Positions 3,561 through 5,900 of a stretch of DNA of 10,400 nt are shown in pieces. This DNA comes from a virus. The translations under genes and the position numbers were made by a program. The notes beneath the pieces were generated by a model. That model was not told the origin of the DNA. It saw only the letters and a program-made list of their open reading frames with translations, and searched no databases. The stretch lies in UHGV virus genome UHGV-0037186, one strand, 5' to 3'. Numbering within the stretch: the stretch's first letter is position 1; each line of letters starts with the position of its first letter.

Positions 3561-5900
3561 ATGGCAAAAGGCAAATCCGCACTGGCACTGGCGCTGAAAA
3601 AGAAAATCGGCAGCAATGACGAGATTCAGAAGGTCTCCCACTGGATTGACTCCGGTTTCCCTCCACTGAACAAAGCCATTTCCGGACGTTACGACGGTGG
3701 TTTTCCGTGTGGGCGTATCGTTGAAGTCTTCGGGCCACCAAGCGCGGGGAAATGTGTTACCGCAGACACCATGCTGCTGACGGAGCGTGGAATGGTAACA
3801 GTGAAAGAACTGTTTGAGATTGAGGGGCACAAAGCAACATGCACTACTCGCGATGTAGAGCATAACGTTGGACTCATCAATGAAAATGGCGTGATAGAGA
3901 AAACCTCACACCTGACATGGAACAACCGTCGCAAATTCAAGCGCATTAAGCTGGCATCAGGGGGTTACATCGAGGCTACGTTCCGTCACCCAATTCGTGT
4001 GGTTGACGACTTAGGCAATATCGTCTGGCGGTATGCTGAAAAAATCAGTGTAGGCGACACGATTCCTTCAATGGTTGGCACACATCAATTCGGCGATCAG
4101 CACTTGGATGCCAATATCGCAAAACTGATGGGCTATTTAATTGCTGACGGATACGTGGCCTCTGAAAATTCTGTGCATTTTTCTAACACAGATCCATTCA
4201 TCAAGGATGAGTACTACCGCCTCATTTCGCTGGTATCAGACAAGATGCCAGTTACGAGAAAACATAACGGCTCGGAAGACCATGTGCTGTTTAGCAAAGA
4301 GGTGCGTTCGCTGCTTTTTAAAGAATATGGTCTGGAGTATGAGAAAGCTGCTGGCAAGCAGGTTCCGTTGAGTGTGCGTCGCGCCAATAGCGAGGCTCAA
4401 ATTGCATTCCTTCGCGGCTACTTTGAGCTGGAATGCCACGTCAATGATGGTCGCTGCATTGAGGTTGTGAGCGCGAGTGGGCTGCTGCTACAGCAAATTC
4501 GCCTCATGCTCCTGAATCTGGGGATTACGTCAACTATCTCTGAAAAACACGTCGCAGGTTATAAAAACATATATTACCGGCTGTCATTCAGTGGCTCTAA
4601 CTACGACCTTTTCCTGTCAACGATTGGGTTCGAGTCTCCGGCTCGTTTAGCAGTGGCAACCAAACGGGACATTAGTTTTGACCGCACTTATTTAGGCTAC
4701 GTTCCGCACATCAGCGGCTTAGTGAAATCACTCTACGAGTCACTCACCAAGACCTCTCGTAAAGACTACGTTCTGGTAGATCACGTTATTGGCCGCGGCG
4801 ATCGTGTCGGAATAGACAAACTGCGAGAAATCTATGTCTCCTTCATTGGCAGAAAGAATCGTTTTAACGAGCATCTGTTTGCACAACTGGCAGCGGTAAT
4901 TGACTCTAACTTGTTCTACGACGAAGTCGTGGCTATTGAGGAAGGTGAAGCACCAACGTTCGACGTAGCGATGCCGGAAACACACTCTTTCTGGTCTAAC
5001 GGGATTATCAGCCACAACACATTCCTCGCGACGGCTGCGATGGTGTCAGCACAAAAACAGGATGGTCTGGCCGTATTCCTTGACCACGAAAACAGTTTCG
5101 ACGTTGGTCTGGCGGTAGCGAACGGACTGAACGCCGACGAAGACGACGGTCAGTGGGTCTACAAACAGCCGGATACCTTCGAAGACTCCGTAGAGCTGAT
5201 CGGCACAATCCTCAAGCTGGTGCGCGACGAAGAGCTTATTCCGGAAACAGCCCCTATCTGCATCGTAGCCGACTCTCTGGCGTCGATGGTTCCGAACTCG
5301 AAGGCTGAGAAGTTCGACAAGATGGCAGAAGGCACTGCGAAGGACAAAGATCAGCTGAACATGAACGACAACACGGCGCTGGCGCGCGCGACAAGTGCGA
5401 ACTTCCCTACTCTGGCGCTTTGGGCGCGTAAGTACAACGCGTGCATCATCTTCTTGAACCAGGTGCGTACCAAAATTGGTGTGATGTTTGGCGATCCGAC
5501 TACGTCTCCGGGTGGCGACTCTCCGAAGTTCTACGCGTCGGTGCGCATCCGTCTGGGTGCATCCGTCATGAAGGATGGCAAAGAGAAGATCGGACAGGAC
5601 GTTGGCGCCGAGTGCATTAAAAACAAAGTCGCACCTCCGTTTGGCAAATGCTCATGGAAATTCTACTTCGACCCGACTCGCGGGCTGGACGTCGTCGAGT
5701 CTCTGGTTGAATACATGCTGGAGGAAGGATACCTGCCCAAGAGCGCCAGCGGGCGTGTGGAAATTGGCGAGAAGAAATACACCAAATCACAGATCGTCGA
5801 GATGTACCGGGAGAAGCCATTAGCTGAAATCATTGCTGCGTTACAGGCAATAGATGACAGGCGCGAGAAGACATCACCGACAGATGAATTAGAAGATTAA
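3561..5900 (+). CDS. recA: RecA-family recombinase precursor (779 aa) containing an in-frame intein; predicted mature RecA ~357 aa
   Basis: SD AAAGGAG (3547-3553) 7 nt before ATG. N-extein ends GRIVEVFGPPSAGK (compare E. coli RecA [15 protein letters not shown]). C-extein resumes with T and carries RecA-typical segments (FLNQVRTKIGVMFGDPTTSPGGDSPKFYASVRIRLG, compare E. coli [35 protein letters not shown]). Closer to bacterial RecA than to T4 UvsX, by recall. Followed by a terminator. Confidence 0.9.
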   Translation: MAKGKSALALALKKKIGSNDEIQKVSHWIDSGFPPLNKAISGRYDGGFPCGRIVEVFGPPSAGKCVTADTMLLTERGMVTVKELFEIEGHKATCTTRDVEHNVGLINENGVIEKTSHLTWNNRRKFKRIKLASGGYIEATFRHPIRVVDDLGNIVWRYAEKISVGDTIPSMVGTHQFGDQHLDANIAKLMGYLIADGYVASENSVHFSNTDPFIKDEYYRLISLVSDKMPVTRKHNGSEDHVLFSKEVRSLLFKEYGLEYEKAAGKQVPLSVRRANSEAQIAFLRGYFELECHVNDGRCIEVVSASGLLLQQIRLMLLNLGITSTISEKHVAGYKNIYYRLSFSGSNYDLFLSTIGFESPARLAVATKRDISFDRTYLGYVPHISGLVKSLYESLTKTSRKDYVLVDHVIGRGDRVGIDKLREIYVSFIGRKNRFNEHLFAQLAAVIDSNLFYDEVVAIEEGEAPTFDVAMPETHSFWSNGIISHNTFLATAAMVSAQKQDGLAVFLDHENSFDVGLAVANGLNADEDDGQWVYKQPDTFEDSVELIGTILKLVRDEELIPETAPICIVADSLASMVPNSKAEKFDKMAEGTAKDKDQLNMNDNTALARATSANFPTLALWARKYNACIIFLNQVRTKIGVMFGDPTTSPGGDSPKFYASVRIRLGASVMKDGKEKIGQDVGAECIKNKVAPPFGKCSWKFYFDPTRGLDVVESLVEYMLEEGYLPKSASGRVEIGEKKYTKSQIVEMYREKPLAEIIAALQAIDDRREKTSPTDELED
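3753..5018 (+). mobile_element. Intein (422 aa) with LAGLIDADG homing-endonuclease domain, inserted in the Walker A P-loop of the RecA-family gene
   Basis: Starts with Cys (codon 65, TGT 3753-3755) immediately after GPPSAGK. Ends ...GIISHN (His-Asn, codons 485-486) followed by Thr+1 (the Walker A Thr). Block B-like T-x-x-H (ATFRHPI). LAGLIDADG motifs LMGYLIADGYV (~4124-4156) and FLRGYFELECHV (~4407-4442). Length is a multiple of 3 (1266 nt) and in-frame. Confidence 0.85.

Follow-up and report, generated by a model that had tools for sequence, protein, structure and literature searches.

A predicted LAGLIDADG homing intein in the Walker A motif of a RecA-family recombinase of SSU5-like phage-plasmids

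In an SSU5/pHCM2-like phage-plasmid (E. coli pB379_2), an in-frame insert of 422 codons interrupts the recombinase gene within its Walker A motif. Profiles, alignments and structural modelling identify this insert as a canonical class-1 intein bearing a LAGLIDADG homing endonuclease, and both protein splicing and DNA cleavage are predicted for it. The intein occupies positions 3753-5018 (+) of the window, by which we mean the whole 10,400-nucleotide stretch analysed here. Very probably it splices out of the recombinase and homes into intein-less relatives at the junction between the Gly-Lys and the Thr of the P-loop (GK/T; the slash marks the junction throughout). Near-identical inteins in diverged backbones, identity switches adjacent to the junctions and clean indels in four clades suggest that it has homed recently and repeatedly among plasmids of E. 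coli, Klebsiella, Enterobacter and Cronobacter. A single intein lineage would in that case have entered no fewer than four clades of host alleles, with a divergence of ~15-25%.

Anatomy of the intein

The recombinase ORF (3561-5900, +, 779 aa) is preceded by a Shine-Dalgarno-like AGGAG located 8 nt 5' of the ATG. The N-extein (3561..3752, 64 aa) ends in the Walker A residues GPPSAGK. The intein follows as residues 65-486 of the ORF, from Cys1 to Asn422, starting with CVTADT and ending with SHN. The C-extein (5019..5900, 293 aa and stop) continues with a Thr and the RecA core, which is recognised by a profile match and by alignments to SSU5_060 and E. coli RecA. The insertion thus lies between the Lys and Thr of VFGPPSAGK/TFLATAAM, and the placement and length given by the sequence-only reading are correct to the base. 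The Thr+1 codon (ACA, 5019-5021) encodes the Walker A Thr, which is also the presumed splice nucleophile. The intein differs from its exteins in composition, with a GC content of 47.9% (GC3 52.8%) versus 54.1% (GC3 64.4%).

All of the class-1 hallmarks that had been claimed can be located, and they are conserved in relatives. The N-terminal splicing (HINT) part (3753..4079), which is all-beta in the AF2 (AlphaFold) model, begins with Cys1 (3753-3755) and includes block B, where the TxxH motif reads TFRH (intein residues 76-79, 3978-3989). The C-terminal splicing part (4908..5018), delimited by the AF2 model, motifs and a match to a DnaB mini-intein, carries block F/G, PTFDVAMPETHSFWSNGIISHN (residues 401-422, 4953-5018). 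This segment has no Cys, unlike that of class-3 inteins, and it closes with His421-Asn422 (5013-5018) directly before Thr+1. Besides Cys1 the intein has three cysteines, at residues 30, 228 and 235.

The approximate endonuclease region lies between the splicing parts (4080..4907, residues ~110-385) and is helical or alpha-beta. It is outlined by a LAGLIDADG_3 match, the PI-PkoII alignment, structural matches to I-DmoI and the secondary structure. Both of the LAGLIDADG motifs reported earlier are found here, LMGYLIADGYV (residues 125-135, 4125-4157) and FLRGYFELECHV (residues 219-230, 4407-4442), and both align to the motifs of PI-PkoII. In motif 1 the Asp-Gly is canonical (LIADG). In motif 2, FELEC, one Glu aligns with the PI-PkoII Asp. 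Both motifs hold an acidic residue in the PI-PkoII alignment and in relatives. The conserved Glu of motif 2 stands two positions earlier in some relatives (ECGC versus ELEC), and because of this shift in register the assignment of the catalytic residue in motif 2 is uncertain.

A profile search against intein and LAGLIDADG models, which had been proposed as a check, returned Pfam and TIGRFAM models above their cut-offs: Intein_splicing (PF14890, 44.6-47 bits versus 35.8), TIGR01445 intein_Nterm (35.8 bits versus 24.5) and LAGLIDADG_3 (PF14528, 65.8-68.2 bits versus 22.5, at residues 215-292). Sequence matches in the PDB include PI-PkoII, TliVMA and PI-PfuI, and the DnaB mini-intein match covers residues 381-422. 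The AF2 model of the intein has a pLDDT of 81 and a pTM of 0.85, and Foldseek matches it to TliVMA (7qss, E = 3e-20, TM 0.71).

Removal of the intein in silico leaves a product of 357 aa with an intact GPPSAGKT, as the sequence-only reading had anticipated. This product is 96% identical to the natural 358-aa intein-less allele SSU5_060 and aligns to it without a gap across the junction; the first 289 residues, junction included, are 100% identical. The alignment of the exteins to E. coli RecA is likewise unbroken at the junction (GRIVEVFGPPSAGKTFLATAA in the alignment). At the nucleotide level the intein-less recA site of SSU5 reads GGGCCGCCAAGCGCCGGTAAA/ACCTTTTTGGCAACGGCTGCG.

The host recombinase and its genome context

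The 779-aa ORF matches the RecA Pfam profile (E = 1.2e-36), with the match split around the insert, and RecA sequences in the PDB (E ~1e-35). The score against TIGR02012, the bacterial RecA equivalog model, is 135.1 bits and falls below the cut-off of 325.3, and the protein groups with the phage family PHROG 97 'UvsX-like'. On these two grounds the host protein is classified as a divergent phage-type RecA-family recombinase and not as an equivalog of bacterial RecA. The earlier description of a 'bacterial-type RecA' needs adjusting in this respect.

A recombination module lies upstream on the same strand (720..3558, +). It consists of an ORF at 720-1151 that is called UvsY-like in phage Cyrano and belongs to PHROG 2058 (unknown function), a gp32-like SSB (1271-2287), a 5'-3' exonuclease (2348-3292) and a conserved 88-aa ORF (3292-3558). 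Rfam detected no RNA family across the whole window. Promoter and terminator scans of 3200-6700 gave counts no higher than in shuffled sequence, with none of note inside the intein, and repeats within the recA ORF are limited to short chance ones. A 19-nt repeat at 6415-6459 was considered as a transposon end and rejected, as no second, inverted copy was found in a sequence that extends ~10 kb downstream.

Relationship to other inteins

The K/T position of the P-loop has been described as the 'classic' intein site (PMC5050341). By sequence, the window intein belongs to an allelic family of RecA P-loop (GK/T) inteins inserted at profile position ~62/63. The RecA Pfam profile resumes at position 63 in the window protein and at 63-65 in eight of its ten closest relatives, the other two resuming at 73 and 84. 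The relatives (e.g. P0019-P0029, P0007, P0011) share the junction GK/C...HN/T with the window intein, and most share the LAGLIDADG_3 endonuclease, although the endonuclease region is degraded in some. The ten closest are 37-47% identical to the window intein over all 422 residues and further members 28-45%, so that all remain below 50%. Among their settings are a bona fide RecA with RecA_C, encoded on a bacterial contig of 550 kb, as well as prophage-like contigs and a distant SSU5-like module. We found no published characterisation of these other RecA P-loop inteins.

Two parallels had been named in the sequence-only reading. The archaeal one stands as a positional analogue, since the RadA intein of Pyrococcus horikoshii and Thermococcus sibericus is also inside the P-loop, in a homologous recombinase (PMC5790916), and ATPase activity of the precursor is reported to be compromised until the intein is spliced out (PMC8529194, PMC5790916). 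The RadA inteins differ in that they are mini-inteins without an endonuclease, reside in chromosomes of thermophilic archaea and have demonstrated conditional splicing; structural likeness to the window intein is limited to the splicing fold (4e2t, 2lqm, ~20% identity). The Mycobacterium tuberculosis RecA intein (PI-MtuI) interrupts a bacterial RecA and carries a LAGLIDADG-type endonuclease, and its splicing-domain structures (2imz, 3ifj) are among the fold matches. However, it is chromosomal and actinobacterial, has low sequence similarity to the window intein and occupies a different, non-allelic site. The lack of allelism follows from NF007072, the model of the mycobacterial intein-containing RecA, which aligns the C-extein as uninterrupted RecA over positions 71-253; the window intein lies upstream of position 71. 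The score against this model is 95.9 bits, versus a cut-off of 1024.

More distant comparisons can be made with the TerL1-a inteins of mycobacteriophages, whose host protein is the large terminase of actinobacteriophages and not a recombinase. The only sequence link to these is a weak match to the terminase inteins of PHROG 17415 (E = 1e-8). The solved endonuclease-bearing inteins TliVMA (7qss), PI-PfuI (1dq3), PI-PkoII (2cw7) and PI-SceI (1vde) have the same two-domain architecture of HINT and LAGLIDADG (Foldseek E = 3e-20 to 2e-8), but are 10-21% identical to the window intein and sit in archaeal or yeast V-ATPase, RNR or polymerase exteins.

Distribution of intein-plus and intein-less alleles

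A recA of this type occurs in ~826 PLSDB plasmids, of which ~248 are intein-plus and 569 have an uninterrupted junction. Some 70% of the related plasmids do not carry the intein, and the Y. pestis pMT1 and S. Typhi pHCM2 lineages are among them. Because PLSDB is redundant, plasmid percentages are descriptive only. Among complete E. coli genomes the intein is present in 120 of 5426 (~2%), always on phage-plasmids. Plasmids of clinical origin from Klebsiella, Enterobacter, Citrobacter and Cronobacter also carry it, and the in-frame 1266-bp insert is found in three sequenced phages. One intein-plus element, PhiR41_1, is a deposited phage genome whose recorded host is E. coli MG1655. A few copies are broken, by an inversion in pYLPI6a and by an IS3-family insertion in E. 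albertii. A repeat search found no inverted repeat at the borders of the pYLPI6a inversion, which may be an assembly artefact.

Given this distribution, the classic site, the relatives at the same RecA position and the labels already applied to some copies (see below), the earlier judgement that the intein is unusual was overstated.

Evidence for recent horizontal spread

At the nucleotide level the intein of K. pneumoniae is 99.9% identical to that of the window, that of Cronobacter 99.8% and that of a second E. coli clade 97-98%, while the extein and flanking genes adjoining it in these elements are 75-87% identical. The switch in identity occurs at 3743 and 5027, which is 9 nt from each junction. 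Estimates of dS are 0.003-0.09 for the intein versus 1.0-1.7 for the exteins. In each of four backbone clades, intein-plus elements occur beside intein-less ones to which they are 97-99% identical over kilobases. The two kinds of allele differ there by a clean 1266-bp indel, with alignments that break exactly at the junction.

Short flanks are linked to the intein. The upstream flank GCG GGG AAA (3744..3752, +) and the downstream flank ACA TTC CT (5019..5026, +) are each identical in all seven intein-plus alleles examined, so that GCGGGGAAA/ACATTCCT is common to the seven. The intein-less alleles differ at the synonymous position -6 (7/7), at -3 (6/7) and at +3 (7/7). Donor-type tracts range from -6..+3 in Klebsiella to about -15..+43 in Cronobacter. 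The very short tracts between flanks that are 83% identical are smaller than what a single homing event normally leaves, and later recombination within clades may have trimmed them. The intein itself can be mosaic: in PhiR41_1 the N-terminal splicing part is identical to the window and the endonuclease part resembles the Cyrano type.

Precise loss of the intein was considered as the origin of the polymorphism and rejected because no intein-less allele bears the intein-linked flank markers. In a search for the two intein-type flanks joined without the intein, no plasmid was found; the 222 full-length matches are all 80-90% identical and none reaches 99%.

Selection on the intein

Values of dN/dS are 0.10-0.23 for the whole intein and 0.03-0.08 for the splicing parts; the endonuclease part gives 0.13-0.22, estimates built on few substitutions (9-19 non-synonymous changes in that part). 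Every full copy examined has an intact endonuclease part. Together with the maintained reading frame, the low values in the splicing parts lend indirect support to the predicted splicing. The dN/dS of the exteins between clades was discarded as a sign of working splicing because most of that divergence is older than the invasion.

Proposed mechanism and alternative explanations

In the account that we favour, the split P-loop of the 779-aa precursor would prevent it from binding ATP. Cys1 would begin an N-S acyl shift, the N-extein would move to Thr+1 and Asn422 would cyclise. The products would be a ~39-kDa recombinase in which GPPSAGKT is intact and a free endonuclease of ~47 kDa. As a nucleophile, Thr at +1 is weaker than Cys or Ser, and splicing could therefore be slow or conditional. 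Superinfection or co-residence could bring an intein-less relative into the same cell, and the recA of that relative would be cut by the endonuclease at the sequence that encodes GK/T. Homologous repair off the intein-plus allele, by host enzymes or by the RecA/gp32/exonuclease module of the element itself, would install a copy of the intein there, in many cases together with only a few bases of flank.

It is unlikely that the endonuclease is dead and that a splicing-only intein spreads by ordinary homologous recombination among co-resident phage-plasmids. Frequent recombination of phage-plasmids has been reported (PMC10879196), the PhiR41_1 intein is itself mosaic, and the endonuclease region is degraded in some relatives (P0011, P0015, P0017, P0018). 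However, in four separate clades both breakpoints fall 3-45 nt from the intein ends, a placement that general recombination would not produce repeatedly, and the intact endonuclease part with its dN/dS of 0.13-0.22 and the acidic residue in each LAGLIDADG motif also speak against this reading. That the insert does not splice at all, being a disruption or an assembly or fusion artefact in a recA pseudogene that expresses only the endonuclease, is highly improbable. PGAP does call the whole 779-aa product a 'LAGLIDADG family homing endonuclease', and the few truly broken copies would fit, but the same in-frame insert recurs in ~240 independent complete plasmids and the three phages, the splice-site residues are all in place, dN/dS is 0.03-0.08 in the splicing parts, and an intein-plus element has been deposited as a phage genome.

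Retention of the intein as a post-translational switch, whereby conditional splicing would leave the recombinase inactive while the plasmid is lysogenic or during some kind of stress, is quite unlikely. The P-loop RadA intein and DnaB inteins are documented cases of conditional splicing (PMC5790916, PMC6195587), selective retention at P-loops has been proposed by Novikova et al. (PMC4760082), and Cys1 with cysteines 30, 228 and 235 could permit redox control. Set against this, most related plasmids do without the intein, and the pattern resembles a recent selfish invasion and not long-term co-adaptation, since the dS of the intein is far below that of the exteins; no direct sign of regulation was found. 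A wider proposal, that the endonuclease is a weapon against intein-less SSU5-like rivals, that conditional splicing at Thr+1 gates the recombinase to life-cycle stage or stress, or both, is rather unlikely. The first part would amount to marker exclusion, as with the seg endonucleases of T-even phages. If either part were true, the intein-plus PhiR41_1 and the near-isogenic intein-less elements would offer a natural, genetically tractable E. coli system in which to measure the role of an intein in fitness.

Significance and annotation

Homing-endonuclease inteins at ATPase P-loops are textbook, and the element described here therefore changes no concept. Its value lies mainly in offering a natural homing system in E. 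coli, where near-isogenic plus and minus pairs and donor tracts down to 9 nt would make homing, co-conversion and fitness cost directly measurable in a model host. We found no published mention of this intein in the literature on inteins in SSU5, on pHCM2/pMT1/P1-like phage-plasmids and on plasmid RecA of Enterobacteriaceae. PGAP labels some copies 'intein-containing recombinase RecA'. On ~240 plasmids the recombinase goes under the name 'LAGLIDADG family homing endonuclease', and PHROGs lists the protein family (phrog_9666) as 'unknown function'. Such naming conceals a core recombination gene from studies of gene flow among phage-plasmids.

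Identification of an intein in a phage-plasmid recombinase

The 779-aa ORF at 3561-5900 reads ...VFGPPSAGK / CVTADT...(422 aa)...GIISHN / TFLATAAM..., and the insert divides a RecA Pfam match (E = 1.2e-36). A sequence-only reading had placed an intein with a homing endonuclease at 3753-5018, and these coordinates are exact. The motifs it named were located at intein residues 76-79 (TFRH), 125-135 (LMGYLIADGYV), 219-230 (FLRGYFELECHV) and 401-422 (the block F/G tail with its His-Asn end). The Pfam profiles Intein_splicing (44.6-47 bits; cut-off 35.8) and LAGLIDADG_3 (65.8-68.2 bits; cut-off 22.5) were matched, and TIGR01445, for the intein N-terminal region, scored above its cut-off. 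In a PDB sequence search the hits were PI-PkoII, the TliVMA intein and PI-PfuI, and the alignments covered both LAGLIDADG motifs. An AlphaFold model of the intein (pLDDT 81, pTM 0.85; input alignment of eleven sequences) has a helical middle and beta-rich ends. In structure it comes closest to endonuclease-bearing inteins, with TliVMA first (E = 3e-20, TM 0.71) followed by PI-PfuI, PI-PkoII and PI-SceI; the middle region is matched by I-DmoI, and the ends by mini-inteins including the RadA and Mtu RecA splicing domains. The composition of the intein is unlike that of the host gene (GC3 52.8% versus 64.4%).

Removal of 3753-5018 in silico yields a 357-aa protein that aligns gap-free at 96% identity to SSU5_060 (358 aa), the intein-less recombinase of phage SSU5, with 100% identity over the first 289 residues, junction included. 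The spliced product also aligns to E. coli RecA uninterrupted across the junction, where its sequence includes GRIVEVFGPPSAGKTFLATAA. Exteins discontinuous with RecA, named beforehand as evidence against an intein, were therefore not found. Profile, structural and extein evidence thus establish the anatomy and exact boundaries of a real intein, and the original interpretation was correct. By sequence, the host protein is classed within the RecA superfamily as a divergent, phage-type protein and not as a bacterial RecA equivalog: it scores 135 bits against TIGR02012 (cut-off 325) and matches PHROG 97, 'UvsX-like recombinase'.

Evidence for recent movement of the intein

Aligned to the window, six further intein-plus elements all have an intein of 96.9-99.9% identity. 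Their exteins and neighbouring genes are only 75-87% identical in five; the sixth, from Enterobacter, is a member of the window's own clade (94-98%). Synonymous divergence is 1.0-1.7 in the exteins and 0.003-0.09 in the intein. In the most informative comparisons, identity switches at 3743 and 5027, nine bases off each junction. All seven intein-plus alleles carry the flanks GCG GGG AAA / ... / ACA TTC CT, whereas other synonymous codons occur at -6, -3 and +3 among the seven intein-less alleles examined.

Intein-plus and intein-less members, 97-99% identical over kilobases, occur in each of four backbone clades (Klebsiella; E. coli Cyrano type; Enterobacter/SSU5 type, which is the window's own; Cronobacter). 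In all four, the alignments of these pairs break exactly at the junction as a clean 1266-bp indel, which establishes the polymorphism. The donor-type tract beside the intein runs from -6 to +3 in Klebsiella and up to approximately -15 to +43 in Cronobacter, where it agrees with the window's clade. The same polymorphism could in principle come from precise loss. However, no joined intein-type flanks without the intein were found, all 222 full-length matches being only 80-90% identical. Precise loss is therefore rejected, and the polymorphism reflects gains. The comparisons show horizontal spread of the intein and provide a clear natural record, read from sequence, of probable recent and repeated homing across enterobacterial phage-plasmids. 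This record, together with near-isogenic pairs from a model host, is the addition of the present analysis.

Several individual copies are rearranged or diverged. The intein of phage PhiR41_1 (L005, 4586-5851) is a mosaic: codons 1-110 match the window's intein exactly, and the endonuclease part shows the substitutions seen in the Cyrano-type lineage. The pattern suggests that intein variants have undergone gene conversion. In E. coli pYLPI6a (L006), the gene is destroyed by an inversion of 4831-5843 (99.8% identity), a segment equivalent to recA nt 271-1283 inside the intein. The inversion has no inverted repeat at its borders, so it is either genuine or an artefact of assembly. The most diverged copy (92% nucleotide identity, frame open) is in E. 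albertii p3RM15112 (L010, 2809-6314), a reduced plasmid of 62 kb with a 1163-nt IS3-family insertion in the C-extein at ORF nt ~1770.

Endonuclease state and proposed mechanism

The predicted endonuclease is likely active. With modest counts, dN/dS is 0.10-0.23 for the whole intein, 0.13-0.22 for the endonuclease and 0.03-0.08 for the N-terminal splicing part. In LAGLIDADG motif 1 the Asp-Gly is canonical. Motif 2 contains Glu residues, one of them aligned to the PI-PkoII Asp, but its register differs among relatives.

We infer a mechanism from the established class-1 pathway and the precedent of P-loop RadA inteins (PMC8529194, PMC5790916). The precursor would be unable to bind ATP until Cys1, Thr+1 and Asn422 perform splicing and restore GPPSAGKT. 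The released endonuclease would cut intein-less alleles within a shared cell, and homologous repair of the cut allele would copy the intein in. Such a cycle would be self-referential, the element interrupting a recombinase of the sort on which homing relies. Host RecA or the spliced product of the donor allele could fill that role.

Distribution and annotation

A 492-nt query across the junction identified recA of this type in 826 PLSDB plasmids, uninterrupted in 569, from genera including Klebsiella, Escherichia, Enterobacter, Yersinia (pMT1), Salmonella (pHCM2), Citrobacter and Cronobacter. Intein DNA is present in 248 plasmids and three phage records (Cyrano, PhiR41_1, vB_KpnS_p4727), and every annotated CDS under a match is this recombinase gene, variously named. 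Among complete E. coli genomes, 120 of 5426 carry the intein, none on the chromosome. The intein-plus share is about half in Escherichia and Enterobacter, about a fifth in Klebsiella, 1/49 in Salmonella and 0/63 in Yersinia, fractions that are descriptive only because the plasmid collection is redundant. Y. pestis pMT1 shares an identical target site with an intein-less Enterobacter plasmid whose clade is already invaded, which makes an ecological reason for the lack of the intein in Yersinia more likely than resistance.

For most plasmids the RefSeq name given to the entire 779-aa product is 'LAGLIDADG family homing endonuclease'. Others are called 'hint domain-containing protein' or, in some copies, 'intein-containing recombinase RecA' (a PGAP label). 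The product is held in a separate 'unknown function' family, PHROG 9666. As a result, analyses of gene content overlook the recombinase.

Relation to known inteins

The sequence-only reading had considered an intein in a mobile-element-borne bacterial-type RecA in this gene context unusual. The insertion site is the standard one; Walker A Lys/Thr is called the 'classic' P-loop intein site (PMC5050341). RecA is among the bacterial proteins that most often bear inteins, with 56 described (PMC4760082). The mycobacterial RecA intein differs in its insertion site. The window intein is a well-known kind of element, itself unpublished; our literature search found no published mention of it or of any intein in phage-plasmids.

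An exhaustive profile search recovered 187 cluster representatives (E <= 1e-30). The ten best relatives are all RecA proteins, 37-47% identical over all 422 intein residues, several of them bona fide RecA with the C-terminal domain. The RecA profile resumes at 63-84 in these ten, and at 63-65 in eight. Further relatives lie on a 550-kb bacterial contig, on prophage-like contigs and in a distant SSU5-like module. The endonuclease region is degraded in some relatives, as the homing cycle predicts.

The distant SSU5-like module (L018, metagenome contig ERZ27257820 k141_7541) has, at the same site, an intein with 44% identity. A TGA within 7430-7440 replaces the conserved block F Trp (HSFWSNG to HSF*SNGFISHN), so the gene is called as two ORFs; nonsense mutation, sequencing error and recoding are all possible causes. 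One bona fide RecA (P0024, 1148 aa) has two inteins, the related P-loop intein and a downstream second insert with a LAGLIDADG_2 endonuclease.

Gene neighbourhood

E. coli plasmid pB379_2 (NZ_CP090457.1) and a Shigella flexneri plasmid are 100% identical to the window, which by sequence is assigned to the SSU5/pHCM2-like phage-plasmid group. The recombination module lies on the plus strand and comprises a UvsY-like ORF (720-1151; so annotated in phage Cyrano), a gp32-like SSB (1271-2287), a 5'-3' exonuclease (2348-3292), a conserved 88-aa ORF (3292-3558; PHROG 2207, unknown function) and the intein-bearing recA. An identical 88-aa protein (WP_000920226.1) is found in E. coli, Enterobacter and Y. 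pestis pMT1 plasmids; its DNA is the region's most diverged part between clades (75-77% identity).

SSU5-type synteny stops at ~6374, within an SPFH/lipoprotein gene of which a 63-aa N-terminal stub remains (ORF 6195-6386). From there, 69 nt (6374-6442) show 94-97% identity to sequence without annotation in temperate phages, SfIV, ev099 and mEp332 among them, although the counterpart carries a tail protein annotation in one SfIV-like record. Within these 69 nt are a small palindrome, AGTCATcttaaATGACT, and one copy of TTAAACCTGTGGCGATTCA (6415-6433), which is repeated in direct orientation at 6439-6457; no inverted partner was found within ~10 kb downstream. This junction region (6195-6460) may hold the end of mobile cargo carrying a type I restriction-modification system. 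This system (hsdM and hsdS, 6583-10350) stands in place of the SSU5 genes downstream of recA from ~6374 to the window end; hsdR lies beyond. In L001, a record reaching ~10 kb further downstream, the region is at 12619-20554. GC is low in hsdM (44%) and hsdS (38%) compared with ~53% in the backbone. In the source plasmid the region is flanked by an IS3-family transposase and a group II intron reverse transcriptase.
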